Notes: generated by a model not told the origin, from the sequence alone. A stretch of DNA of 64,000 bases from Candidatus Levyibacteriota bacterium (GCA_016182185.1 JACOXU010000003.1:123881-187880), one strand, 5' to 3'; positions 10,136 to 56,170 are shown, counted from the first letter of the stretch. Numbers and translations are program-made.

Positions 10136-10969
10136 ATGACAACACAGGAAAAAGAACCACGAAGTCATCATTCTTACGAAGAATTCACCAATCGCCCCTT
10201 TTATATAGCGCTCAACAAAGAGACTATGAGACTTGCTCCAAGACCAGTAAGATATGCAGTTGATATTGGGACAGGAAAAACTGCGATGATTGATCAGATG
10301 TTTGATGAGAAAAAACTAACAATTGACTTCCAAATTAGAGGCTATGACCCTGATGAAGAAGCATTGGCCGGCGACCGAATCAAATATTACCATTATAGAG
10401 ATAAGATTCTTTTTATTGAAGCCTGGGCAGAAAACATTCCCTTACAAGATAGATGGTCTGAGCTGACAGTTTGCGCAAATGCTATTCATTTAACAGAGGT
10501 ACCAAAGACAATCAAGGAATTTGCAAGAATTACAGACGATGAAGGAACTCTTCTTATAAATACTGCGTACACACGCGACCATGCATATCCTGAAGCGTCA
10601 GAAGCCTCATGGGGAGCATTAGTTGTCAATGCAAGAATCGCCGCACGAAAGACTCACGGAATAACTGATATTCCCAAGCCTGTTCAGCTTCAAACTTATA
10701 AGCTTGAAGATTATGAAGCTATGCTAAAGGACGCTGGATTTGTTGTTGAAAAAGCCTATCCCAAGGTAGTACACATGAATCGGGAAGATCTGGAAGCAAT
10801 TTGCCATTATGATGAATTTGCCAAGGGCGCACTTCCTGGCGTAGAACTTGAGCTTGCCAAAGAATTACTTGTTGATGCAATTAAACCGACTCTGGAAAGA
10901 AGAGGTTCCGACAGTTTACCCCGAGGATGGGGTATCATAAAAGCTACAAGACTTCCTAGAGCTGCGTGA
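10136..10969 (+). CDS. putative class I SAM-dependent methyltransferase
   Basis: 277 aa; motif I-like AVDIGTGKTA, acidic post-I GYDPDEEAL, motif II-like ELTVCANAIHL; weak. Confidence 0.4.
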   Translation: MTTQEKEPRSHHSYEEFTNRPFYIALNKETMRLAPRPVRYAVDIGTGKTAMIDQMFDEKKLTIDFQIRGYDPDEEALAGDRIKYYHYRDKILFIEAWAENIPLQDRWSELTVCANAIHLTEVPKTIKEFARITDDEGTLLINTAYTRDHAYPEASEASWGALVVNARIAARKTHGITDIPKPVQLQTYKLEDYEAMLKDAGFVVEKAYPKVVHMNREDLEAICHYDEFAKGALPGVELELAKELLVDAIKPTLERRGSDSLPRGWGIIKATRLPRAA

Positions 10970-10971
10970 TT

Positions 10972-12294
10972 TTACGGTAGAGAAAATTTACTACAGAGTG
11001 TTTTTACCTCTTCTTTAATTTCCAATAATTTTTTATTCTTCTCAACCCTTTTTTTGAAATCTTTCCAGAATTCGCTTCTTTTGGCTTTATCCAAAGGTAA
11101 AACCTCACTGGAAATCTCATTTATTACATCATTTATCCATTTGGCAATTTGCACCATTTCTTTCTCTTTTATGCCCCGAGTCGTGATAGCAGGAGTTCCC
11201 AATCGAATTCCTGAAGGATAAAATGGAGGCATGGGATCGTTGGGAACTGCATTCTTATTCACTACGATTCCTGCTACTTCCAAGGCATAAGCCGCCAAAG
11301 CGCCATTAATTTTCTTATTAGCAAGATCAATCAAAAGTAAATGGTTGTCTGTCCCGCCGCTTACAAGGTTGAACCTCGATTTGGTCAATTCCTCAGCCAA
11401 AACTTTCGCATTTTTAACAACCTGCTCTGAGTATTTTTTAAATTCCAGCTTACTTGCCTCAAGTAAAGAAACTGCAATTGCGGCTGTTTGGTTATCATGC
11501 GGTCCTCCCTGCAAGCCCGGAAAAACTGCTTTATCAATTTTACCTGCTAGCTCCGGGTCTTTTTTTAGTCCTTTTTCTGTCACCATAATCATGGCACCTC
11601 TTGGCCCCCTTAATGTCTTATGGGTTGTTGTCATGACGATATGAACATAAGGAATTGGGCTTGGATGAGTCCCTCCAATAATCAATCCCGCTATATGAGA
11701 TACGTCAGCTAGTAGATACGCTTCGACTTTATCTGCAATTTCTCCAAATCTTTTGAAATCTATAATTCGGGGATATGCCGTGGCTCCGCATACTATTATA
11801 TTGGGTCTTTCCTTCAAAGCTAGTTTTTCTACTTCGTCGTAATTAATCAGGCCGTTCTTGTCAAGATTATAAGGGATAATTTTAAAGTACTTTCCGGAAA
11901 ATGAAACGGGAGATCCGTGCGTTAAATGCCCTCCGAATGCAAGAGATAATCCTAAAATTTTGCTTTTAAAAGGCTCCAAAAGAGCAAAATATACGGCTGT
12001 ATTTGCCGGAGATCCGGAATATGGCTGCACATTTACATGCGGAACACCGAATAATTTTTTTGCTCTTTCTTGCGCTAAAATCTCTATATCGTCGATCAAA
12101 GTGTTTCCCTGATAATATCTTTTCTTCGGATAACCCTCTGAATATTTATTATTAAGAACTGATCCAAGAACTTCAAGCACGGCTTTTGAAGCGTAGTTTT
12201 CCGATGGAATCATCTCCAAAACATCTTCCTGCCTTTTTTCCTCTTCTTTTACTAATTTGTAAATTTGCGGATCAACCGCTTTTAAATTCTTCAT
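10972..12294 (-). CDS. glyA: serine hydroxymethyltransferase
   Basis: 440 aa; PLP-lysine motif VMTTTHKTLRGPRG, full-length SHMT. Confidence 0.9.
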   Translation of the reverse strand: MKNLKAVDPQIYKLVKEEEKRQEDVLEMIPSENYASKAVLEVLGSVLNNKYSEGYPKKRYYQGNTLIDDIEILAQERAKKLFGVPHVNVQPYSGSPANTAVYFALLEPFKSKILGLSLAFGGHLTHGSPVSFSGKYFKIIPYNLDKNGLINYDEVEKLALKERPNIIVCGATAYPRIIDFKRFGEIADKVEAYLLADVSHIAGLIIGGTHPSPIPYVHIVMTTTHKTLRGPRGAMIMVTEKGLKKDPELAGKIDKAVFPGLQGGPHDNQTAAIAVSLLEASKLEFKKYSEQVVKNAKVLAEELTKSRFNLVSGGTDNHLLLIDLANKKINGALAAYALEVAGIVVNKNAVPNDPMPPFYPSGIRLGTPAITTRGIKEKEMVQIAKWINDVINEISSEVLPLDKAKRSEFWKDFKKRVEKNKKLLEIKEEVKTLCSKFSLP

Positions 12295-12320
12295 ACTATC
12301 TTTACTGTAATGCGGAGAGC

Positions 12321-12412
12321 TTACAAAATTTTCTCAGCGAGCTTTTGCGCCATCAGTCAGCTTGTCAGGTAATAACTTACTCGCACTGCGAACGAGAAAA
12401 TTTTCGTAAGCG
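12321..12412 (-). ncRNA. structured intercistronic element between folA and glyA (long-range 17-bp stem)
   Basis: GCTTACAAAATTTTCTC ... GAGAAAATTTTCGTAAGC arms enclosing about 55 nt with internal GCGAG/CTCGC pairing. Confidence 0.3.
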
Positions 12413-12422
12413 ACCTCAGCAT

Positions 12423-12935
12423 TTATTTTTCTAGGTCAATAAATCTGAATTTTATTCCCTCTGATTCTCCAAATTCTTCTTTCATCAACCTTTTAAATTC
12501 TGAATAATCCGGAAAAAATGTATCAGCCCCAAAATCCCCCTCTACTATTGTTAAGTATAGCTTATCTACAAGCCCCTTTTCTATGGCCTCTCTGAAAATT
12601 TCTCCTCCTCCGAATATAAAAATTTCTTCGGATCCCGGACTTTGCTTTGCTTTTTCAATGCCTGCAATAAGATCTCGAGCGATCGTAACTTCAGGGGAAT
12701 AAAAACTTACGCTTCTAACCCGTTCAGGATCTCTGGTAATCACGATACTCGTTCTTTCAGGCAATACTCTTCCGATAGATTCAAATGTTTTCCTGCCCAT
12801 TACAAGCGGGTGGCCGCGGGTGAGTCGCCTCATCCTTTCAAAGTCCTGGGGAATGCGAAAAAGAAGATCATTATTCTTCCCTATCCCTCTTTTTTCATCC
12901 ATCGCCGCAACAATACTAACTAAATTTTCTTTCAT
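12423..12935 (-). CDS. folA: dihydrofolate reductase
   Basis: 170 aa; N-terminal IVAAMDEKRGIGKNNDLLFRIPQDF and GRKTFESIG motifs of DHFR. Confidence 0.85.
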   Translation of the reverse strand: MKENLVSIVAAMDEKRGIGKNNDLLFRIPQDFERMRRLTRGHPLVMGRKTFESIGRVLPERTSIVITRDPERVRSVSFYSPEVTIARDLIAGIEKAKQSPGSEEIFIFGGGEIFREAIEKGLVDKLYLTIVEGDFGADTFFPDYSEFKRLMKEEFGESEGIKFRFIDLEK

Positions 12936-13348
12936 AACTTCAATCCTTTTTTTACCACATCTTCTGTATTCTTCAGGAGATTATAGTTCTTTAAGCTCCC
13001 TATCTCAACCCATTCCGGAATCGTCTCTTCTGCTTTCTTAATTTCGCCTTTGAATACCCGGCAGAAAAATACCCTCCAGGAATATGTTTTTATCCCATCT
13101 TTTCTTTCAAGATCTGTGATATATAGATTTCCGGGAAAATCCAAAAGATTATCAATTGTCGTTTGAAGCCCAGTCTCTTCTTCTAATTCTCTTTTGGCTG
13201 CCTCGATTTCGTCTTCCCCTAGATCTAATCTTCCACCCGGCAGGCCGTAAATCCCAGTCAGGTGCCCTGCTTTTTCAGTATGTTTTACAAGTAAAACTTT
13301 TCCGTTTTTAATGATCAAAACCGCAACACTTGGAATTATTTCTGTCAT
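12932..13348 (-). CDS. NUDIX hydrolase
   Basis: 138 aa; Nudix box GGRLDLGEDEIEAAKRELEEETGL; 4-nt overlap with folA. Confidence 0.75.
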   Translation of the reverse strand: MTEIIPSVAVLIIKNGKVLLVKHTEKAGHLTGIYGLPGGRLDLGEDEIEAAKRELEEETGLQTTIDNLLDFPGNLYITDLERKDGIKTYSWRVFFCRVFKGEIKKAEETIPEWVEIGSLKNYNLLKNTEDVVKKGLKL

Positions 13349-13372
13349 TTATTAAAATATTAATTGCTGGAT

Positions 13373-13400
13373 TATAGTGATGTATCAATACATCACTATA
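13373..13400. promoter_or_regulatory. 28-bp perfect inverted repeat TATAGTGATGTAT-CA-ATACATCACTATA (putative operator)
   Basis: 13-bp arms, 2-bp spacer between trpR-like gene end and NUDIX/folA start; related split copy at about 13801..13853 upstream of the trpR-like gene. Confidence 0.5.
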
Positions 13401-13402
13401 AA

Positions 13403-13837
13403 TTAACCAAACCATCTTTTTACAAATTTTGAACTGTGAAGATATCTATCTTTAAATACCTTTCTCTCCTTATTTATTTCCTTTTCTGTTCTCTTTAATG
13501 CTAAAACAATTCCTCCTTCGCCTTCTTCGATTATTTTTTTTATTTTCGAAACAGTTTGAGTGCTTGTTTTTGATTTGGATGCGACAGTTCTTAAATCTAA
13601 ACCTTTTACCAAAAGGCTTGCTATGTGCCATCTCCTTTTAAGCATCCTAAGCTCGGATTTTGTAAGAATATCTTTCAAAAACTTTTTGATCTCCTCTGTA
13701 TTTTTTAAAGAATTGACAATTTCGTAAAGAAAATGAATTTCTTTGAAATATTCTTTATTTTGAACTTCTTCTTTTGGTTTTGACATATTAATTAAGAATT
13801 GTAGTCCTAAATTATCAAATTTGTTTCCATGTATCAA
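13403..13837 (-). CDS. TrpR/YerC-YecD-like HTH DNA-binding protein
   Basis: 144 aa; SELRMLKRRWHIASLL...GLDLRTVASKSKTSTQTVSKI resembles Trp-repressor-like YerC family; flanked by 28-bp palindromes. Confidence 0.5.
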   Translation of the reverse strand: MIHGNKFDNLGLQFLINMSKPKEEVQNKEYFKEIHFLYEIVNSLKNTEEIKKFLKDILTKSELRMLKRRWHIASLLVKGLDLRTVASKSKTSTQTVSKIKKIIEEGEGGIVLALKRTEKEINKERKVFKDRYLHSSKFVKRWFG

Positions 13838-13941
13838 TACATCACTACAATATCAAAATAAAACAAAGTATGGTAATTTCCAATTTCAATATGTAGGAAA
13901 CATCAAAAATAATTCGTAAAGACTTTTAAAAAGAGGGGTCT

Positions 13942-14925
13942 TTAAAATCCTCCCACCACTGTGACTTCTCCTCTAATCGGTGGCCAGGGATTATAATTTT
14001 CCAGTGTAAAATCTTCGTATTTTATATCATCGATATCTTTGAGTTTGGGATTTATTTTCATCCTCGGGAAAGGACGCGGTTTTCTTTTGAGCTGCTCTTT
14101 TACCTGTTCAAAATGATTGCTATAAATATGCGCATCTCCAAAAGTGTGAACAAAATCCCCTGCTGGATAACCAGTCAGATGAGCAAAAATCATGGTGAAA
14201 AGCGCGTAGCTTGCGATGTTAAAGGGAACTCCCAGAAAAAGATCAGCGCTTCTTTGATAAAGCTGGCATGAGAGCTTTCCGTTTATGACATTGAATTGAA
14301 AGAGTGTATGACAAGGCGGAAGAGCAACCGACTTTCCCTTGCCTGCCATCTCGTAGACAAATTCAGGATTCCAGGCAGAAATAACAATATGTCTTCTTTC
14401 CGGTGTTTTTTTGATCTTTTCAATCGCCCATTTCACCTGGTCAATTTTCCGTCCGTCTGATGCCGGCCATCTTCTCCACTGAACCCCATAAACCGGCCCC
14501 AATTCTCCAAATTTTTCCGCAAACTTTTTGTCATTTTTAACTCTTTCTATGTACTCGTCCTGGCTTAGCATTTTTTTATTTTTAATATTTTTTTTGTGTT
14601 TTTTATTTTTTATATTTAATTTTTTATTTTCAAACGATTCTTTATATCGTTTGAAACCCCAATCATCCCAGATATGAACACCATTATCCACCAGATATTT
14701 AATATTTGAATCGCCCCTGAGAAACCAGATCAGCTCATGCAGAATTCCGCGCAAGAATACTTTTTTGGTTGTAAGAAGAGGAAGTCCTCGAGAAAGATCG
14801 AAGCGTATCTGCCGACCAAACACGCTTTTAAACATGATGCCCGAATTAAACTCGTGCTTCTCGAATCCATTCTCCATAACGTCTTTTAATAAATTCAAAT
14901 ACTGATATTCTTCACTTCGTTTCAT
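13942..14925 (-). CDS. thyA: thymidylate synthase ThyA with lysine-rich insertion
   Basis: 327 aa; catalytic [21 protein letters not shown] (Asn specificity residue kept), about 45 aa K-rich insert. Confidence 0.9.
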
Positions 14926-14982
14926 ATTAAAAATTAAATATTAAATAGTAAATATTTTATTTTTTATATTTAATATTCTATA

Positions 14983-15516
14983 TTACACTTGCCGTTCCTT
15001 GCGCCGAGTCGTGACTCTTCCTCCCTGCCATTGGCCGCGGTATTTGCTTCCTCCACCCCTTACTTCATGGAATATTACATGCACAAATCTTGCTCCCATT
15101 TCTATCTCAACACTCACCGGCCCTTCGTTCTTAAGACCAAATGTAAGTTCTCCTTGATATCCGGGTTGTATCGGTCCGGTTCTGATAAAAACTCCCGAGC
15201 GAAAAGTCGTAGTTCTGGGAATTATAACCGCAGATAAATTAATGGGAAGATTTATTTTCTCAATTGTCTTGACCAGATAAAAATCTCCGGGTTTTATTTT
15301 GATTTTTTTATCTTTTCCGATTTTTGCTACAGTTTTTACCTCGGGTGTTTTTCTGTGCGTTTCTCCGAGGAGCGCCTCGCCTGAGATTTTGTAAACCTCA
15401 CCCAATCTTAAATCAAATCCTGCTCCTTCAGGATTCTTTAATTCTCTTCCTGATAAACCTTCTACCAGTTTTTTTGTTTTTACTAATTCTAAAAGTTTCT
15501 TTGGTCCAAGAATCAT
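14983..15516 (-). CDS. dUTPase/dCTP deaminase family protein (likely dUTPase role)
   Basis: 177 aa; motif GPIQPGYQGELTFGLKN typical of Dut/Dcd beta-clip fold. Confidence 0.6.
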   Translation of the reverse strand: MILGPKKLLELVKTKKLVEGLSGRELKNPEGAGFDLRLGEVYKISGEALLGETHRKTPEVKTVAKIGKDKKIKIKPGDFYLVKTIEKINLPINLSAVIIPRTTTFRSGVFIRTGPIQPGYQGELTFGLKNEGPVSVEIEMGARFVHVIFHEVRGGGSKYRGQWQGGRVTTRRKERQV

Positions 15517-15523
15517 AATATTC

Positions 15524-16204
15524 TTAATTCTTAAATCTTAAATCGTAAATCTTGATTATATCGGCAGTCACTTTCTCGACTGATTGTTCTCCATTTATTG
15601 TAATAATTTCATTGCTAAACTTTTTTGCGAGCCAGTCATATCCTTCCTTTATTTTCTTAAGTTTTTCCAAAGTTTCATAATATTCCTGTTTCTTATCCAT
15701 CTTTGCCAGTCTTTTTACTGCCGCCTCTTCTGAGATTTTAATGTAAAAAGTAAAATCCGGAATTATAAACTGATGATACATTGACAAAATACTTTGAGCC
15801 ACAAGGAGTATCTCGCTACCATTTAATTTATCTGACTTATCCAAAATCCCATAGGCAACTGATGACCAGAAACATCTATCAGTAATAATTATTTTTCCTT
15901 GTTCCAAAAACGGTTCAATAGTTGTCTTTGAGTGTACTTCCCGATCCGCTGCAAACAAATACTGAAAAGAGGAAGCAGGAAGTTTTATATTGCCCTGAAT
16001 AACATTATGAATAAGATCGCCGATTGGAGGTTTTCTGGTGGGCTCATGTGTTAATAAAACTTTTTTCCTTTTTTCTTCAAAATACTCTTTTAATTTTTCT
16101 GCCTGGGTTGACTTGCCGCTTCCGTCAATTCCTTCAACTGCAATATATCTACCTTTATACGGATTTCTTCTAAAATCTATATCGAACGAAACATGGTACT
16201 TCAT
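15524..16204 (-). CDS. tmk: thymidylate kinase
   Basis: 226 aa; P-loop IAVEGIDGSGKSTQ. Confidence 0.85.
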   Translation of the reverse strand: MKYHVSFDIDFRRNPYKGRYIAVEGIDGSGKSTQAEKLKEYFEEKRKKVLLTHEPTRKPPIGDLIHNVIQGNIKLPASSFQYLFAADREVHSKTTIEPFLEQGKIIITDRCFWSSVAYGILDKSDKLNGSEILLVAQSILSMYHQFIIPDFTFYIKISEEAAVKRLAKMDKKQEYYETLEKLKKIKEGYDWLAKKFSNEIITINGEQSVEKVTADIIKIYDLRFKN

Positions 16205-16348
16205 AAATTAAATTCTAAACTCAAAGCATCAAATCACAAATAATATCCAATTTCCAATACTCAAAATTCAAAATTGTTTTGGATATTAGAATTTTATATT
16301 TGTAATTTATTTGAAATTTGTAATTCTGGATTTAGAATTTAAGCAAGA

Positions 16349-16918
16349 TTATCTTTCTTCGTGAATTTTGCTTTCATCCGGTCCTTTTTGACCAACATAC
16401 TTCGCACTTTTCTTTTTGTAATAAGGAATTTCAGCTGGGGTAGAAAGTTGTTCAAAAGAGACGCTACAGATTCTCATTCCGGGGTAAAGTGCAACGGGCA
16501 TTTTGCCCATATTAGCAAGCTCAAGCGTAATGTGCCCTCGAAAACCGCATTCGATATGGGCCGCAGTTGAATGCACAACAACACCGAGCCTTCCAATGCT
16601 TGATCGTCCTTCAAGCCTCCCGGTCAGATCGTCCGGCACTTCGACATATTCAACTGTTGCACCCAAAACAAAATCCCCGGGCTGAATTATAAACGGCTGT
16701 CCATCTTTAACGCGGAATTCCTTGGTGATTTCTTCTCTTACCTCTTTCTTGAACGGATCCACATATGCATGGCGAGAATGTTCAAATACTCGAAATGAAT
16801 ACCCTAAGCGAAAATCTATCGAACACGCGCCAAGCTGGGTTGAAAAATCAGGGACAGGTTTTATCACAATTTTTTTAGACTTAATCGCCTTTTTAAGATC
16901 TCTGTCCGATAGCACCAT
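16349..16918 (-). CDS. dcd: dCTP deaminase
   Basis: ORF track gives 16349..16987; homology to Dcd begins at internal Met (MVLSDRDLKKAI vs MRLCDRDIEAWL), so start placed at 16918; palindrome ATCGCGTCTGACGCGAT lies just upstream. Confidence 0.75.
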   Translation of the reverse strand: MVLSDRDLKKAIKSKKIVIKPVPDFSTQLGACSIDFRLGYSFRVFEHSRHAYVDPFKKEVREEITKEFRVKDGQPFIIQPGDFVLGATVEYVEVPDDLTGRLEGRSSIGRLGVVVHSTAAHIECGFRGHITLELANMGKMPVALYPGMRICSVSFEQLSTPAEIPYYKKKSAKYVGQKGPDESKIHEER

Positions 16919-17073
16919 ATTAAAATTTAATTTTAAAGATGGAATCGCGTCTGACGCGATAAAACCATAGCAAAAGTTTAACATCAAAAAAGGAAATTTA
17001 AAAGTAGTAAATTAACCATCTCTTGACAATTAATTAAATTTACTTTACTGTTTTTATAGAACTTATTTAAATA

Positions 17074-17610
17074 ATGGCAAAAGTAAAATCAGGTCATGGA
17101 AGATTAATTGCGCTTTTTGTTTTATTTGTGATACTTGCGGCAATTCCCCTGACTGTTAAGATATCTCAGGAACAACAGGAAATCCGCCAGCGTGCGGCAT
17201 ATGTTATTCCAACACCAGCTCCCAGATCATCTCCTCCCTGTTTTGTTCCCCAAGCAGTTCTTGACAAGCTGAAAAGATCGATGAATATAATTTCTCAAAA
17301 TTATGGCTATGGTGATGTAGACCAAGATGGAAGTATAACAACAAAGGATGCCCTACTGATTTTAAGATATGTAGCCAAGGCGACTACTCTTTCTCCTCTT
17401 CAGATAGAAGTAGCAGATGTGGATGGAGCACCGAATCTTTTATCATATGCCTCAAACGTTACCGCAGTTGATTCCCTTTTGATACAAAGATATATCGCTA
17501 GACTTCCTCTTCCTGACGGAAGATACAGTTTTCCGGTCTGTCCCAAACCGACGCCAACTCCTGCCCCTCTTATTTCTCCTTGGTCAGTTACTCCGATTCC
17601 TACTAATTAA
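17074..17610 (+). CDS. membrane-anchored dockerin-like repeat protein
   Basis: 178 aa; TM then SQEQQEIRQRAA motif shared with next gene; Ca-binding dockerin-like segment GDVDQDGSITTKDALLILRYV ... VDSLLIQRYI. Confidence 0.5.
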   Translation: MAKVKSGHGRLIALFVLFVILAAIPLTVKISQEQQEIRQRAAYVIPTPAPRSSPPCFVPQAVLDKLKRSMNIISQNYGYGDVDQDGSITTKDALLILRYVAKATTLSPLQIEVADVDGAPNLLSYASNVTAVDSLLIQRYIARLPLPDGRYSFPVCPKPTPTPAPLISPWSVTPIPTN

Positions 17611-17661
17611 TGTCTTTTTTACTATTGACAAAGCATCTTTAACTATTCTATTCTTGTATTA

Positions 17662-20253
17662 ATGGGAAATCCTTTGCAGAAGGTAGTTGAACTTATTAAA
17701 ACATCAAGCCCCAAAAGGACAATAAGCATAATTGTCATCCTTATCATCGCCGCCGCCGTACCTCTCACTGTCATTGTTTCCCAACAACAGCAGGAAATCC
17801 GTCAGCGTGCAGCAGACTGTACAAACGGAATAATATCTGGAAGAGTCTTTTATGATAACAATCCCGAAAATGGCGTTTTTGACCCTACAGAACAAGGTTT
17901 CGATTTAATCGGACAACCAAATGTTGCCCAGGTGAACATGTGGAATAACGACACTGGAATAGCACTCAACAAAGATATAAGCGCCGGAAATGGTGTCTAT
18001 CAATTTACAGCCTCTACCAATAGAGATGGTTACCGCCTAAGATTTACTGCTCCCACGGGGTACAGGATCACAACGCCCCAAAATATTTCTCCATGGCAAG
18101 TAAGTCCGAGATCTGACGGGCGCTGGCAGGCAGATTACCCTGCCTTAAGACTCCCTCCATGTGCGCAAATATACGATTTTGGAATTACCAACGGTCAACC
18201 TCCTACGCCAACTGCTACACCTCCTCCAATCTCAAGCTGTGGTACAAATGGAAATGTTGTTTTTGACAATAAATCTTCGAGTCTCACAACTACAGCGGGC
18301 GCACCCACGACTCTTACGTGGAACCATACTGTGGGCTCTGGAAATAGTCGGCTATTGATTGTCGGGGTTAATCTTCGCACGTCTTCGGGAGGAAATATCA
18401 CTTCTGTTAGAGCCAACAATCAAAACTTGACTCGAATAGGAAATGTAATAAGTGTAGGCGGAACCTCAAGTCCGACAAGTAACTCCATGTGGTACTTACT
18501 TAATCCTCCCAGCGGTTTAGTGTCAATTTCGGTCACGGCAGACAGAAGTCTGACTATCTCAGCCGGTGCTTCAAGCTGGTCCAATGTAGACCCGAATAAT
18601 CCTTTGGGCAACTCAGTCGCAAATACAGGCAACAACTCCAATCCCAATCTATCAATAGCAGGACCTGCTTGCGGTGTTGTAGTTGATAATCTTGCCACAC
18701 CTATCGGCGACTGTCCTCAAACTCCATCTCCTGATTCGCTTCAGACCCTGCTTTGGAGCGTGAATGTGCCTGGAGATAATCTCTCTGATCAGGGAGGAAA
18801 GGGTCAAAGCGCAGGCAGTTATAAACAATCAGCTACTCAGACAACTATGTGGTGGAATAATGCTTGCAGCGGAGCTTGGGCTTTAAAAGCCGTTCCGGTA
18901 GCGGCATTTGAACCCACTCCCACACCAACAAATATTCCGACACCGACACCTACTCTAGTTGCTGGTGCCAAACCTCCCCCTTGTTTTGTCCCTGCTTCGC
19001 TTCTAAGTCAACTCGGGCTCCCAACTACTGCTGTAAGAGGCTATGGAGATGTTGATTTGGATGGTGATGTTGACATGACTGATGCTACCAAAATATTAAA
19101 TTTTGTTGCTCTAATTCCACCGCTTCCTTCACCTCTTCAAATTGAAGTGGCTGATGTTGATTCAACTTGGGGTGTTCTTTCCAATGCGTCAAGCATAACC
19201 TCAGTTGATTCACTCATGGTTCAAAGATATTTACAAAACTTACCCATACCATCACAATATAATCCACCGAACTCAAATACAATAAGTCTGCCGGTTTGTT
19301 TAGGCCAGCCTACAATCACGCCAACCCAACCGCCAACCCCTATTCCAACTACTATCAGGACGCCAACTCCAACCACTACGCCTCAGTGTACATCCGGTCA
19401 AACATGCACTGCATGTACTGCACCTGCTAATACTTGTAATGGTTCAGGCACTCAAAGCTGTACTCTGACAACAACCTCTACTGGATCTACAAACTGCCAG
19501 CAAGTTACGACTCATAATATTTCCTGTACCGGCGCGCCGGCCAACTGCACAAATGGTAATGTTTGTGTAAGTAACGCCTGTGTTGCTCCAACCGGAGTGC
19601 CCACGGCAACTGTTGTACCCACCCTGACGAAGCCTCCAGGAGTTACTGTTACAGAAGCGCCAAGAATAAGCCCGACCGCTGTTCCGACTATTCCAACCGG
19701 TAATACAGTCTTTGCCCTAAACATTGGACTTGATGGAATTGGAACTGTCGGAGATAATGTCAATCCGAATAATTCGAGTGGCTCCAATAAAAATCCATTG
19801 AGAACATCAAGAAGCGTAACTATTCAGGTGTTTGATAACAACAACACCGAGGTAGCAAATAAGTCCGGCACGCTTACCTATCAAACAGGAAGCGGCAGAT
19901 TTACCGGAAATGTGGATATGGATAGGCTTGCAAGCGCAAATTACAATGTCAAAGTAAAATCTCCAGGCTATCTAAGACGTCTTATTCCTGGAATTCAAAA
20001 TGTGACTGCCGGTCAGGCGTTTAATCTCCCGAATGAAAACTTGGTTACGGGCGATATCAACGGGGACAATGCAATTAATATTCTGGACTACAATATATTT
20101 ATAAGCTGTTCTATCTTCAGTAAAGACGGACAAGCAGTCTGCAACCAGAACCCTGACTACAAAACGCTCTCTGACCTTGATGACAACGGGGCAACTGATC
20201 AGTTTGATTACAATCTGTTTGTCAGAGAACTTTCAGTCCAAAACGGAGATTGA
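17662..20253 (+). CDS. large cell-surface protein with SdrD-B-like domain, Cys-rich module and two dockerin-like modules
   Basis: 863 aa; N-terminal TM+SQQQQEIRQRAAD; GRVFYDNNPENGVFD (Cna/SdrD B-like); Thr/Pro linkers; dockerin-like GDVDLDGDVDMTDATKILNFV...VDSLMVQRYL and C-terminal GDINGDNAINILDYNIF...DLDDNGATDQFDYNLF; about 180-aa domain shared with the giant protein at 58607..64000. Confidence 0.55.
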   Translation: MGNPLQKVVELIKTSSPKRTISIIVILIIAAAVPLTVIVSQQQQEIRQRAADCTNGIISGRVFYDNNPENGVFDPTEQGFDLIGQPNVAQVNMWNNDTGIALNKDISAGNGVYQFTASTNRDGYRLRFTAPTGYRITTPQNISPWQVSPRSDGRWQADYPALRLPPCAQIYDFGITNGQPPTPTATPPPISSCGTNGNVVFDNKSSSLTTTAGAPTTLTWNHTVGSGNSRLLIVGVNLRTSSGGNITSVRANNQNLTRIGNVISVGGTSSPTSNSMWYLLNPPSGLVSISVTADRSLTISAGASSWSNVDPNNPLGNSVANTGNNSNPNLSIAGPACGVVVDNLATPIGDCPQTPSPDSLQTLLWSVNVPGDNLSDQGGKGQSAGSYKQSATQTTMWWNNACSGAWALKAVPVAAFEPTPTPTNIPTPTPTLVAGAKPPPCFVPASLLSQLGLPTTAVRGYGDVDLDGDVDMTDATKILNFVALIPPLPSPLQIEVADVDSTWGVLSNASSITSVDSLMVQRYLQNLPIPSQYNPPNSNTISLPVCLGQPTITPTQPPTPIPTTIRTPTPTTTPQCTSGQTCTACTAPANTCNGSGTQSCTLTTTSTGSTNCQQVTTHNISCTGAPANCTNGNVCVSNACVAPTGVPTATVVPTLTKPPGVTVTEAPRISPTAVPTIPTGNTVFALNIGLDGIGTVGDNVNPNNSSGSNKNPLRTSRSVTIQVFDNNNTEVANKSGTLTYQTGSGRFTGNVDMDRLASANYNVKVKSPGYLRRLIPGIQNVTAGQAFNLPNENLVTGDINGDNAINILDYNIFISCSIFSKDGQAVCNQNPDYKTLSDLDDNGATDQFDYNLFVRELSVQNGD

Positions 20254-21718: not shown

Positions 21719-22170
21719 TAAAGCTCTTCAACAATCCAATCGTCATTCTTTTTTTTTACAAAAACAGGAACAACAGATACTGCGGGGAACATCATTTTGA
21801 CAAGTTCCGCTGTCTTTATTACGTCTTTTTTATGCTTTTCCTCAGAAACCGGATTTCCTGCGCAATCTTCATGTCCCGAAACGACAATATTTTGAGAATG
21901 ATGCTTCTCAATCGATATCAAAATCTTTCCCTTAATAGACTCCATCAGTTCTGACGATCCCGTATCGTTAGCCTTGAAATGATCACCTGATAATAAACCT
22001 ACTAATCCTGCCTCGGTAATCGCATCTGCATATTTGACTCCGAATTTTTCTCTTCCCCACTTGGCAACCGTGCATTCTGATCTTCCATCCATACACCCAA
22101 CGCTTGTAAAAAATGTTTCACCAGCCTTTGACATAAAACTGATAGTACAACAGTTTTCAAAAAAATTCAA
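21718..22170 (-). CDS. beta-carbonic-anhydrase-like protein
   Basis: 150 aa; CMDGRS and IVVSGHEDCAGN match C-x-D-x-R ... H-x-x-C zinc-ligand spacing of beta-CA. Confidence 0.35.
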   Translation of the reverse strand: MNFFENCCTISFMSKAGETFFTSVGCMDGRSECTVAKWGREKFGVKYADAITEAGLVGLLSGDHFKANDTGSSELMESIKGKILISIEKHHSQNIVVSGHEDCAGNPVSEEKHKKDVIKTAELVKMMFPAVSVVPVFVKKKNDDWIVEEL

Positions 22171-24402: not shown

Positions 24403-26610
24403 TTATCTCACCATGAAGCTTATCTCAACTGCAGTGAATCCTTTTCGTTCAATTTTTTCTATAACAGGCGGTATGTAAGAATAACTGGGGCTATTATCGA
24501 GATTTTCTATATAAAAAACTATATTTCGATAGGTGTCAGGAGATGGAGCTATTACGAGCGGGAGGATTTTTTTAGATGTCGCATCATCAAACAAAGATAT
24601 AAAAATATAAGAAGAAACTGCTCTCGTTTTTACAAATTCCAGGGTATCGGCAGATTCTTTCTCGTTTAAGCCCAACCGGCTAGATATTTGCTCAATTAAA
24701 TCCTGGACTTTTTCTTTCCTGACTACATATCCCTTAACTGGTTTATCAACATTAATCGCAGGCTCATAATCGAATTTAAAAGAAGAAACTCTTTCATTTC
24801 CGCTTGTAAAAGTACCATCACCATTTAGAATAACATTTAATCCCAAAGCTGGACTATAATTAGTATTTAAAGGATAAATGGCCGTAGTAGAATAAACAGA
24901 AACGCTTTTCCCTTCCTGTCCATACAGATACAATGGGCTGTCAGAGCATGATCCTGCCAAGTCTATCCAGGCATCGTGAAAACACTGTTGAAATTCAGGA
25001 TCTTCGGGATAATCAGGATCCCACACGCGGTTTTTCATGATATCCAATGGGTAATCTTTTCCGAGAATTTCATTGCATTGCGCAGCAGCTCTCGCGTAGC
25101 AAGCATTGGGATTTATGACATGCTTAGGAGCTGAACTTGGTGCCGGCTGAGGAGGCACAGGATCAGATTGCTGAACCAGTCTCTTGGGAGCAAGGGATGG
25201 TTTAAGTTCAAATGTTTGTAGTTGGATTTGGTTTCTTAATTGATCTGTTCCTAGAGAAAGAAGCTTAGACGAAAAATAACCCTGCGGTTTCAGATCAATC
25301 ATTTGCACGAGGCCTTTATCAAGATTCACCGTTGTTCTACTTTGAGCTGGTATATCCAGTAAATACATTGAATTAATTAATTGACTGTACTTCCCGCCAA
25401 GATTTCCCAGTTCTGAATCAGAGGTTGTTTTATCTACAGCAAGATACTTATTTTCAGAAACTAATGTAAGTATGTCCGTCAATTTTGTCCCAGTCGCAAT
25501 GTTATCTAAATTAATTTTTTGAGAGTTATTTGTGCTGACATTATAGAAATACGTGCCAGACAAAGAATCGTTTTTTGAAATTAATCTATAAACAATATTT
25601 CCGGTGAGCCTATCCCAGTTGGGATCTGAAAATATATCGTCGTTACTAGTTGCAAGAAGAGTCTTTTTCTGCCTTGTGGCAAGATCGAAGATTTCAAGCG
25701 TGTTGGATGACAAAATCGCCCTTCTGAATCCGTCAGTCTCCGAAGTTCCAGAACCTTTACGTCCATCGTAGCCTGCAAAAAGCAGTTTCTTGCCGTCCGG
25801 CGATACTTCAGGCTGGGTACTTATCATCCCATTGGTAAGTGAGGGAATATCCTGTTTATTCGTGCCTGTAAAATTTGAAACCGAGACACCGTAACCCCAG
25901 CCAGCACCTGAATTTGGGAGAAATTTATCAGTAAATAAATCTCCGCTGTCAGTTATGGCAATCGGATACGCCAGAGTAACTCCAAGTCCTGAAGTTTCAT
26001 CGTAGATAAGATTTTTTTGTGCTGGATTTGATGTATCAAGTGTATATACCCTTGATTTCCCCCCAAAGAGTGCGCCTCCCTCAGATGGGCTTACTTCCCA
26101 AACTGCCAAATATTTGGAGTTTGGGGAAACGACATAATCATCAATCCCATACCCGCTATCTGCGGTTATAACAGTTGTTTCTGTCTTAGTATCAAATGCT
26201 CTAATTACGACTTGTTTCCCGTAGTCATTTGCATCGGTATCTTTAATATAGCTAATTCTTTTCGAATCTAAAATTTTGACATGTTTTACATTCGATGGAA
26301 GCTCAACAAGTATACCGCTTTGACTTGTTGATAGGTCCAAAACTGAAATTGTTGATTTGTCTTTACTCCAAGATCCATAGATAAATGAAACTGGAGCGAT
26401 GTATGCGGTTTGTGTTTTATTTTTGTCGTCTTGCTGCTGTGGAGGATTATTTGCCTTATCGTTTTGGCTTTTTATAAATATGCCTCCTGCCAAAGAAAAA
26501 ACAACCAGAAAAAAGATTAAAATCCATTTGGCGCTATCAGAACCCAGACCAAAAAACCTTTTGACTTGAGGTGCTTCAGAAGGTAAATTTTGGGCAGTAT
26601 TTTCTTCCAT
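24403..26610 (-). CDS. large membrane-anchored extracellular protein, beta-propeller-like repeats plus C-terminal LNEKES domain
   Basis: 735 aa; N-terminal TM; TolB/WD-like SPDGKKL, SPNSKYLAVW repeats; C-terminal 250 aa homologous to 6712..8085. Confidence 0.5.
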   Translation of the reverse strand: MEENTAQNLPSEAPQVKRFFGLGSDSAKWILIFFLVVFSLAGGIFIKSQNDKANNPPQQQDDKNKTQTAYIAPVSFIYGSWSKDKSTISVLDLSTSQSGILVELPSNVKHVKILDSKRISYIKDTDANDYGKQVVIRAFDTKTETTVITADSGYGIDDYVVSPNSKYLAVWEVSPSEGGALFGGKSRVYTLDTSNPAQKNLIYDETSGLGVTLAYPIAITDSGDLFTDKFLPNSGAGWGYGVSVSNFTGTNKQDIPSLTNGMISTQPEVSPDGKKLLFAGYDGRKGSGTSETDGFRRAILSSNTLEIFDLATRQKKTLLATSNDDIFSDPNWDRLTGNIVYRLISKNDSLSGTYFYNVSTNNSQKINLDNIATGTKLTDILTLVSENKYLAVDKTTSDSELGNLGGKYSQLINSMYLLDIPAQSRTTVNLDKGLVQMIDLKPQGYFSSKLLSLGTDQLRNQIQLQTFELKPSLAPKRLVQQSDPVPPQPAPSSAPKHVINPNACYARAAAQCNEILGKDYPLDIMKNRVWDPDYPEDPEFQQCFHDAWIDLAGSCSDSPLYLYGQEGKSVSVYSTTAIYPLNTNYSPALGLNVILNGDGTFTSGNERVSSFKFDYEPAINVDKPVKGYVVRKEKVQDLIEQISSRLGLNEKESADTLEFVKTRAVSSYIFISLFDDATSKKILPLVIAPSPDTYRNIVFYIENLDNSPSYSYIPPVIEKIERKGFTAVEISFMVR

Positions 26611-26887
26611 TACTTAAATAATAGTGGAAAAATATTCGTCGGTCAAGAGGTGGTAGGAAACTATTGAATAGAATTTATCTACCCTCAGTATAACGGATAG
26701 ATCAAGCGCTATTCATTCTCCCGCCAAAGGCGGGATTCGCTTGTGGCCAATACACTTTCTCGCAAAATTTCTACTCTTAACCTAATTAGAAATTAGAAAA
26801 TTAAAAATTAGAAATTCCACTCCGCGTCAGCGGAGGGGCTTAGGTGTCTTCTCTCAATCCAATACTGAGTAAAATCGAAGTATTAGA

Positions 26888-28340
<1,453 letters not shown>

Positions 28341-55959: not shown

Positions 55960-56170
55960 CCCTAGTTAGGTTTCAATAAACTTCTTGACTATTCCAAAAT
56001 GTTTTGCTAAACTTACAAAACCTAAGACAGCAAGAGTTCAGCGGCTAGCAATTAGTAATTAGCCACTAGAACATAAACACTTGCCGAGGATATTAGCAAC
56101 TAGCCACTAGTAGCTGGATACTAGTTGCTTCGCTACTCGCTTAGGCGAGTTTTTTTATGAGCAAATAACT
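55960..56170 (+). promoter_or_regulatory. rplJ (L10) leader: promoter TTGACT-17-TAAACT, stem-loops and intrinsic-terminator-like attenuator (CTCGC-TTAG-GCGAG-T7)
   Basis: about 190-nt leader with alternative stems (GGCTA...TAGCC; GCAACTAG...CTAGTTGC) ending in hairpin+T-run 56136..56157 just before rplJ ATG. Confidence 0.45.

Follow-up and report, generated by a model that had tools for sequence, protein, structure and literature searches.

A TrpR-like regulator gene bracketed by two 28-bp palindromes in a thymidylate and folate gene cluster of Levybacteria

INTRODUCTION

Transcription control in bacteria of the candidate phyla radiation (CPR) is almost uncharted; these organisms have few regulators and are not culturable alone. 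We analyzed a 64,000-nucleotide stretch of a Candidatus Levyibacteriota genome (GCA_016182185.1, JACOXU010000003.1:123881-187880), referred to here as the window, in which a run of genes for thymidylate synthesis and the folate cycle includes a small gene for a TrpR-like protein with a long palindrome directly beyond it. The question raised by this locus is whether the protein recognizes the palindrome and, if so, which genes it controls. An account made earlier from the sequence alone, called here the original prediction, had proposed that the protein regulates both its own gene and folA. Within the TrpR family, Bacillus subtilis YerC has been described as the histidine repressor HisR, with the 20-bp operator cacTTTA-N6-TAAAgtg, and the operators of the family are palindromes with TGTA..TACA ends (PMC9413887).

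RESULTS AND DISCUSSION

Two 28-bp sites flank the regulator gene

The palindrome was found exactly as the original prediction had described it (Table 1), with 13-nt arms (14 nt when one flanking base is included) around a nonpalindromic 2-nt center. It begins 2 nt past the stop codon of the regulator gene and ends 24 nt before the ATG of the NUDIX hydrolase gene. No other inverted repeat in the window has arms of 13 nt or more, and none of 30 first-order Markov simulations yielded arms of that length, the longest being 12 nt. At up to one mismatch, the half-site occurs at only two loci in the 64 kb, namely, this one and one upstream of the regulator gene. Both also stood out with a 28-bp position weight matrix (PWM) from related sites: the next best score in the window was -9.9, on a par with shuffled sequence. 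The observation is genuine and well beyond what chance would give.

The original prediction had also placed a related copy upstream of the regulator, with its left arm split by a 23-nt insert and overlapping the start of the gene. The copy is present, but it is an uninterrupted 28-mer, TGTAGTG-ATGTATTGATACAT-GGAAACA (13849 down to 13822 on the coding strand), with a variant arm in place of a split one. The distal outer arm GGAAACA (equivalent to TGTTTCC) is the second most common outer half-site among relatives, and this type of upstream site, with a GGAAACA or GGATACA arm, is also found 5' of the regulator in loci L001, L002, L005, L010, L015, L033, and L133. Comparison with relatives ruled out the split arm, and the ACTACA at 13801..13806 that would have formed part of it is unconserved. 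The start codon required correction as well. All 32 aligned homologs open with M-[SGATV]-K, mostly followed by P, and the N terminus MSKPK is kept across them; by these N termini the regulator starts at ATG 13786 and has 127 amino acids (aa), rather than the 144 aa counted earlier from an upstream TTG. Because the regulator starts at ATG 13786, the upstream site is promoter proximal and clear of the start codon, 36 to 63 nt upstream of it.

The bracket is conserved, and its sequence changes with the protein clade

Relatives were collected by a scan of one genome per species, which gave 15 close loci (L001 to L015, 57 to 79% regulator identity) and three distant ones. Genome loci were then pooled with metagenome loci into 25 distinct loci with a regulator of the Levybacteria type (Levy-type loci). 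Of the 15 genome loci, 14 have thyA on one side of the regulator and folA on the other, usually with dcd, tmk, and the second dcd paralog upstream, and the thyA/folA synteny holds down to 57% regulator identity. The upstream site is present in 24 of the 25 Levy-type loci and the downstream site in all 25, always 2 to 20 nt past the stop codon, with the two sites 429 to 503 bp apart. Conservation of the regulator and its palindrome in related genomes had been put forward as a check of the original prediction, and both flanking sites were kept in 24/25 distinct loci. The most common next gene after the downstream site is folA, which follows directly in 8 loci; in the window, L001, and L002, the site is followed by NUDIX and then folA.

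More distant homologs retain the arrangement with other sequences. A Moranbacteria homolog with 38% identity (L016) has another palindrome, CTTCAGTAAWTTAAWTTACTGAAG, both upstream and downstream of it, and two paralogs from a second Moranbacteria genome (L139 and L140) are bracketed by ATCCTTTAGTATWGTACWATACTAAAGGAT, each with a separate canonical terminator further downstream. Because the Moranbacteria brackets differ in sequence and separate terminators are present in L139 and L140, we consider the operator-gene-operator layout to be a family trait and the palindromes not to be terminators. This covariation of motif and protein clade is, in our view, the strongest argument for the regulator as the binder of the sites. 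At least three TrpR-like paralogs were seen in the Moranbacteria genome GCA_001784675.1 (L139:1-700, L140:600-1400, and L141:3800-4700). The palindrome around the first two is 30 to 34 bp long, and these paralogs adjoin DUF87/TrwB-like genes (similar to type IV secretion system coupling proteins) and DUF5663 genes; the third is without a palindrome of this type.

No site was found outside the regulator locus in approximately 180 kb of Levybacteria DNA (the window together with L001 to L015). Close relatives of the window have a third perfect site, at L135:12432-12459 and L114:1750-1777, on the same contigs as L056 and L033, respectively; it follows closely on a Pro_CA_2 gene, 200 nt upstream of a folC-like Mur ligase gene and approximately 12.7 kb away from the regulator. 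In the corresponding place in the window, Pro_CA_2 is present (21721..22119), and folC and the site are absent. A match with three mismatches at 26392 was considered as a third site and rejected as noise inside an open reading frame (ORF). In L031, an extra site lies between the regulator and a divergent thyX.

The regulator belongs to the YerC/YecD group of the TrpR family

The regulator matched Pfam PF01371 at 56.5 bits (gathering score, 27) over profile positions 2 to 87 of 88 and the YerC/YecD model TIGR02531 at 53.6 bits, above its cut-off of 42.2; against the TrpR equivalog TIGR01321 it scored 21.6 bits, under the cut-off of 67.25. A profile built from 32 homologs matched the structure 3FRW at 1.8e-14. 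An AlphaFold2 model (pLDDT, 76.3) contains six helices, and a Foldseek search with this model returned the YerC-type structures 3KOR, 3FRW, and 3G1C at the top (E values of 2e-4 to 1e-3; target TM-scores of 0.74 to 0.82), followed by the Escherichia coli TrpR entries 1TRR, 1TRO, and 1ZT9 (query TM-scores of approximately 0.5 to 0.6). The profile scores and the structural matches bear out the earlier description of the protein as TrpR-like.

The regulator has a C-terminal extension of approximately 35 aa, consisting of a helix (residues 92 to 115) and a tail with the conserved sequence GGSKFVKxWF; a C-terminal extension is present in all of the CPR proteins compared here, and HisR and TrpR are without it. 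At least 120 homologs were found, 121 to 152 aa long and mostly 127 to 130 aa, the named ones being Patescibacteria, and 24 columns of the homolog alignment are invariant. A bracket with the core motif of the Levy-type sites also surrounds the genes of a second TrpR-like subfamily, whose members have 144 to 147 aa.

The 28-bp motif is a composite of 8-bp units

The consensus of the sites is TGT-WKYN-ATGTAT-YG-ATACAT-NRMW-ACA, in which each arm reads, in a profile of 149 unique sites, T-G-T-W-K-Y-N-A-T-G-T-A-T around a YG center. Beyond 28 bp the palindromy breaks off abruptly, and the 3' flank, rich in A, has no T-tract, with five or more T residues in the next 8 nt at only 24 of 148 sites. 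Each arm consists of two units in 8-bp phase, the outer 8-mer, TGTWKYNA, repeating the inner one, TGTATYGA, in degenerate form; some sites contain 3 + 2 such units (L029). Hybrid sites with noncomplementary outer arms are kept upstream of the regulator, and because these hybrids are conserved, a requirement for a hairpin is disfavored.

Three other identities were considered for the palindromes and set aside. An intrinsic terminator was rejected on a terminator scan that called none, A+T-rich stems, the missing T-tract, and the separate terminators in L139 and L140. A mobile cassette of the form inverted repeat-gene-inverted repeat is disfavored by the conserved synteny and by the lack of a transposase nearby. 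A LexA/SOS box had been suggested by the TGTAT half-sites and by recA, uracil-DNA glycosylase (UDG), and dprA neighbors; the spacing is unlike CTGT-N8-ACAG, and the sites bracket the TrpR-like gene, not lexA.

Pairs of family palindromes 32 or 51 bp apart within one intergenic region were observed at L051:2799/2850, L053:2817/2849, L116:1181/1232, and L118:1442/1474. One member of each pair has a TA center with ATTA/TAAT arms and the other a CG center with AGCG/CGCT or AGTG/CACT arms; the pairs in L053 and L118 adjoin a cytidylyltransferase-like gene.

Predicted promoter elements coincide with the sites

At the level of sequence, the -35 hexamer of the predicted regulator promoter is the center of the upstream palindrome. 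The TG of the extended -10 element is at 13817..13816 and its hexamer at 13814..13809, and at least 12 relatives have a TGnTAnnnT element in the equivalent position, at +5 after the 28-mer. The central dinucleotide of the upstream site reads TG toward the regulator in 15 loci and CA in 1. This layout would suit a repressor that occludes its own -35 element, and a conserved promoter whose putative -35 is the palindrome center supports the autoregulation proposed in the original prediction.

In the downstream site, the distal arm together with the next two bases forms TATAAT (13376..13371, coding strand), 22 nt before the NUDIX ATG, which is a possible -10 element for NUDIX-folA. The TG of the downstream site points downstream in 13 loci and in the opposite direction in 2.

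A candidate autoregulated repressor of the folate genes

We favor, with moderate confidence, the explanation that the protein is an autoregulated TrpR-fold repressor, acting on two bracketing 28-bp composite operators and gating the folate half of the cluster. The parts of this proposal differ in strength. That the flanking palindromes are the regulator's own operators, as the original prediction read them, is very likely from the pairing of regulator and palindrome across distinct loci and from the change of motif with protein clade. It is probable that the regulator binds the 28-bp sites, and the chances that folA is under its control are slightly better than even.

In this proposal, the 127-aa YerC/YecD-family protein would recognize the 28-bp composite palindrome and act as a repressor rather than an activator. 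Two dimers may sit side by side on each 28-mer, as E. coli TrpR does on its operators, since the sites show 8-bp phasing and TGTA..TACA ends and 1TRR is among the fold matches. At the upstream site, binding would cover the -35 element and the spacer of the regulator's own promoter, leading to autorepression. The downstream site, located past the stop codon and before NUDIX-folA(-glyA), could act either by promoter occlusion or, as a roadblock, by holding up transcription that reads through from thyA. A loop might also form between the two sites, approximately 450 bp apart, possibly by way of the C-terminal helix and tail, and the C-terminal extension is a candidate dimer-dimer contact. In Levybacteria, the folate-cycle half of the thymidylate cluster (folA and, in some relatives, folC and thyX) would then be under a switch that may respond to a small molecule.

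Sites away from the regulator and alternative explanations

Several findings, most of them from the motif's wider distribution, weigh against this proposal. A metagenome scan with the pattern TGT-N4-ATGTATYGATACAT-N4-ACA returned at least 120 stretches, and a TrpR-like ORF stands beside the site in only about 21 of the loci listed, or approximately a sixth. At least 12 sites lie between convergent genes. Among 135 sites, 29 are inside ORFs of at least 200 aa, and Pfam confirmed that ten of these host ORFs are real genes, encoding MurB, MiaA, an amidohydrolase, a class I Trp/Tyr-tRNA synthetase, dihydropteroate synthase (DHPS), TatD, a reverse transcriptase, FemAB, MurT, and a GT1 glycosyltransferase. 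The Pfam domain alignment spans the site in all of these hosts but MurB, where the site falls between two domains. Intragenic sites use all three reading frames (encoding peptides such as LYRCIDTLKQ, CSDVLIHHYN, and NVLMYRYIKT), and in two cases compared by eye (FemAB and the tyrosyl-tRNA synthetase TyrRS), the comparison with homologs showed no change in length. In 50% of sites, compared to 7.6% expected from pooled half-sites, the four variable positions of the outer arms, which the N4 of the search pattern does not fix, are fully self-complementary. Two different symmetric variants occur within one locus in L007, L051, and L053, which a simple dimer-operator model does not predict. Among relatives, the downstream site is not followed at a fixed distance by any conserved -10 element. 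The genes after that site also include a small unknown protein, a membrane protein, a HAD hydrolase (L011), and dprA (L131), and in L035, L076, L139, and L140, the site faces a convergent gene or a terminator and has no gene to regulate. In those clades, the downstream site cannot be a promoter operator because it faces a convergent gene or a separate terminator. Control of folA as first proposed is plausible, with the downstream site preceding folA directly in 8 loci and through NUDIX or another small gene in others.

Loci with intragenic sites include L019, L020, L022, L025, L027, L039, L040, L049, L054, L085, L092, L123, and L134. In three diverged reverse transcriptase (RVT_1) lineages, the motif is at the same codons, approximately 15 aa after YADD (L019:6867, L040:1882, L092:1438, and L025:944), with the core kept and the outer arms differing; these enzymes look like those of diversity-generating retroelements (DGRs).

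The original prediction had held that a palindrome at many unrelated loci would be a generic repeat rather than an operator. In part this is what was found, as the motif occurs at more than 120 metagenome places, most of them not beside TrpR-like or thymidylate/folate genes; the 64 kb of the window contains two copies. With the motif at so many places, many of which lie within real genes or separate convergent ones, the regulon is not purely one of folate and thymidylate. The dispersed and intragenic sites and the excess self-complementarity are unexplained by a plain operator model and keep a global role alive. The regulator could bind the palindromes not as a thymidylate/folate regulator but as a CPR-wide, site-specific chromosome-binding protein, whether global regulator, roadblock, or ParB/Noc-like organizer, with its sites under selection wherever they are of use, genes included, and its position between thyA and folA a lineage-specific accident. 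Such a role would account for the sites in genes such as murB, miaA, murT, and those for DHPS, TyrRS, TatD, FemAB, and the glycosyltransferase, for the reverse transcriptase lineages with sites at the same codons, and for the sites between convergent genes. It would also fit one 174-kb contig with three exact sites, the 144- to 147-aa subfamily, whose sites share the core motif in quite different neighborhoods (e.g., beside yebC), and the varied other neighbors, which include recA, UDG, dprA, and pcrA-like genes as well as SerRS, GatA, and Def. We nevertheless regard this, the main alternative, as unlikely, as the 180 kb of Levybacteria DNA holds no site beyond the regulator locus, the closest relatives have their extra sites at folC and thyX, and the thyA/folA synteny persists down to 57% regulator identity. 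A broader version, which we consider quite unlikely, is that the CPR TrpR-like proteins form an expanded chromosome-binding family, each clade with its own long palindrome and its gene bracketed by two copies, that serves as a genome-wide roadblock, organizer, or silencer and not as a pathway repressor; such a system would follow the logic of ParB-parS or Noc-NBS on a TrpR fold. Further copies may in that case have been selected in place inside essential genes (murB, miaA, folP, tyrS, and DGR-type reverse transcriptases) and between convergent genes.

It is also conceivable that both sites serve only autorepression of the regulator through an operator-gene-operator loop, with folA-glyA transcribed independently. 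The bracket persists in clades that have a convergent gene or a terminator after the downstream site, and the missing fixed-distance -10 element agrees with this explanation as well, but the site in the window ends shortly before the NUDIX ATG and contributes a perfect TATAAT, its TG points downstream in the large majority of loci, and folA follows in most Levy-type loci; we find this explanation very doubtful. Finally, it is highly improbable that the palindromes have nothing to do with the protein and form hairpins in RNA or DNA, as terminators, mRNA stabilizers, or selfish repeats like repetitive extragenic palindromes or miniature inverted-repeat transposable elements: the excess self-complementarity, the occurrence immediately past stop codons, in convergent intergenic regions, and at numerous unrelated places, and the several TrpR-like paralogs beside DUF87/TrwB-like genes in one Moranbacteria genome would fit, but the flank is A-rich with no T-tract, the conserved upstream hybrids are unable to form a full stem, the motif differs between protein clades, L139 and L140 have canonical terminators of their own beyond the sites, the window holds two copies, no transposase lies nearby, and the two intragenic copies compared by eye do not look like insertions.

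Comparison with known systems

HisR is the nearest characterized relative. The autoregulated repressor that we propose shares with it membership of TIGR02531 and the nearest solved structures (3KOR, 3FRW, and 3G1C, of the HisR group), and both are small, all-helical helix-turn-helix proteins predicted to act on palindromic operators that include one at their own gene. They differ in that the HisR operator is 20 bp, whereas the present sites are 28 bp (TGTWKYNATGTAT-YG-ATACATNRMWACA), and in that HisR has fewer than 100 aa, whereas the present regulator has 127 aa with the conserved C-terminal extension and a gene bracketed by two sites. The HisR regulon comprises histidine biosynthesis and uptake, whereas the neighbors here are thyA, folA, NUDIX, glyA, folC, and thyX. 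The neighbors in the window, the 15 genome loci, and approximately 10 metagenome loci are thyA, folA, NUDIX, and glyA, and no his gene was beside any site examined. The original prediction had spoken of an uncharacterized regulon; a member of the YerC family has in fact been described, as HisR (PMC9413887), but the present clade has another operator and other neighbors. A literature search for a CPR palindrome or transcription factor, or for a link between YerC/YecD and thymidylate, returned nothing relevant beyond the HisR paper, which points to a TrpR-like regulator linked to thymidylate and folate that is undescribed.

The likeness to E. coli TrpR (1TRO and 1TRR) lies in the fold, in palindromic operators with TGTA...TACA ends, and in autoregulation, which TrpR is subject to. 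The 8-bp phasing of the half-site units recalls the tandem dimers of TrpR, and in a manual alignment, the Arg that matches TrpR R54 is kept in the KRRWH motif of the regulator, whereas R84 is unconserved. The regulator differs in falling under the TrpR equivalog cut-off, with 12 to 22% identity in structural alignments, in having a site of 28 bp versus approximately 20 bp, and in involving no trp genes. Two high-quality operators a few hundred base pairs apart, one of them at the promoter, are also a feature of LacI (O1-O2), GalR, and DeoR; here, the whole regulator gene is between the operators, the second directly past its stop codon, and looping is a proposal. Like the sites of ParB-parS and Noc-NBS, the palindromes are sharply bounded, sparse, present in coding sequence without indels, and located beside the gene of the putative binder. 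The outer-arm variant TGTTTCC...GGAAACA resembles the arms of parS, which we take to be TGTTTCAC-GTGAAACA. The present protein is without a ParB or CTPase domain, however, and the core sequence differs.

The pairing of regulator and operator rests on unusually strong comparative support, in both its retention at 24/25 loci and its covariation with protein clade. If correct, it would add thymidylate/folate to Trp and His as a third type of TrpR-family regulon, document an operator-gene-operator architecture, and provide a handle on how CPR organisms, as nucleotide scavengers, match dTMP synthesis to the recycling of folate. A separate question, that of selection on DNA sites within genes, is raised by the intragenic copies.

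Genes of the cluster

Pfam and NCBIfam assignments confirmed the gene order given in the original prediction (dcd, tmk, the DCD-family paralog, thyA, the regulator, NUDIX, folA, and glyA), with all eight genes on the minus strand (Table 1). They are consistent with its pathway reading as well, from dCTP through dUTP, dUMP, and dTMP to dTDP, coupled to the conversion of dihydrofolate to tetrahydrofolate (THF) and methylene-THF. The folA start overlaps the NUDIX stop by 4 nt. The ORF downstream of glyA (10136..10969, plus strand) is convergent, so that glyA is the last gene of the run.

Table 1. Coordinates of the regulator, its flanking sites, and the genes of the cluster
Feature	Position	Strand	Details
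Downstream site	13373..13400		TATAGTG ATGTAT CA ATACAT CACTATA, perfect palindrome; PWM score 30.6
Upstream site	13822..13849		TGTAGTG ATGTAT TG ATACAT GGAAACA (coding strand); PWM score 40.5, top in window
Predicted regulator promoter	13809..13837	-	-35 TTGATA (13837..13832), 17-nt spacer, extended -10 TGaTAATTT
YerC/YecD-family TrpR-like regulator, 127 aa	13403..13786	-	Pfam PF01371; TIGR02531
dcd, dCTP deaminase	16349..16918	-	TIGR02274, 207.5 bits (cut-off, 92.8)
tmk, dTMP kinase	15524..16204	-	TIGR00041, 155 bits; Pfam Thymidylate_kin, 142.7 bits
DCD/dUTPase-superfamily paralog	14983..15516	-	dCTP_deam, 87.2 bits (cut-off, 92.8); archaeal-type dUTPase model PRK02253, 68 bits
thyA, thymidylate synthase, 327 aa	13942..14925	-	Long form with Lys-rich insert; TIGR03284, 416.6 bits; NF002496, 410 bits (cut-off, 325)
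NUDIX hydrolase	12932..13348	-	Pfam NUDIX, 56.5 bits
folA, dihydrofolate reductase	12423..12935	-	Pfam DHFR_1, 143.9 bits
folA-glyA spacer, 128 nt	12295..12422	-	Long-range stem
glyA, serine hydroxymethyltransferase	10972..12294	-	Pfam SHMT, 524 bits; NF000586, 547 bits

The best solved relative of dcd, whose start MVLSD is common to its homologs, is the bifunctional-type M. tuberculosis dCTP deaminase:dUTPase (2QXX/4A6A), at 178 bits versus 129 bits for E. coli 1XS1, and the first Dcd may by this comparison be bifunctional and form dUMP. In the second DCD paralog, a Gly (LTFGL) replaces the Glu of the Dcd TLE motif in three genomes; the first paralog retains this Glu, which we take to be the catalytic residue of E. 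coli Dcd (E138). The second paralog is probably a dUTPase rather than a deaminase because its TIGR02274 score is under the cut-off and a Gly stands at the Glu position. The NUDIX enzyme scored under every NCBIfam equivalog cut-off (MutT, 46; NudG, 38.6) and is without a substrate assignment; most of the 15 genome loci have a homolog of it in the cluster, on one side of the regulator or the other. The Lys/Asn-rich insert of ThyA (codons ~95 to 140; 14500..14640) is encoded by a very A/T-rich stretch in which a repeat search flagged low-complexity repeats.

The spacer between folA and glyA had been described as structured. It contains a long-range stem of approximately 27 bp (GCGGAGAGCTTACAAAATTTTCTC... 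/ ...GAGAAAATTTTCGTAAGCGACCTCAGC) that encloses approximately 60 nt, with a minimum free energy of -37.4 kcal/mol; the signal is weak (z = -2.0, with 10 of 200 shuffles equally stable), and the spacer is not conserved in relatives, where it measures 0 to 460 nt or is broken by other genes. An Rfam scan by E value of 10500..17500, which includes the spacer, gave zero matches, and a riboswitch or other known RNA in the cluster or the spacer was rejected on this result and on the weak, unconserved stem.

Other features of the window

No match to 23S rRNA reached the Rfam gathering score in the window. A 16S rRNA gene is at 26887..28338 on the minus strand; close to its 5' end, at 28147..28170, is the perfect 24-nt palindrome CCCCTCTTTTTTAAAAAAGAGGGG. 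Divergent from dcd, at 17074..20253 on the plus strand, are the genes for two adjacent secreted-looking proteins of 178 and 863 aa, which share an N-terminal ...QQQQEIRQRAA motif, dockerin-like YGDVD(L/Q)DG repeats, and Pro/Thr-rich linkers. A ribosomal protein L10 leader was matched at 56003..56164 on the plus strand, just at the Rfam gathering score (44.6 versus 44).

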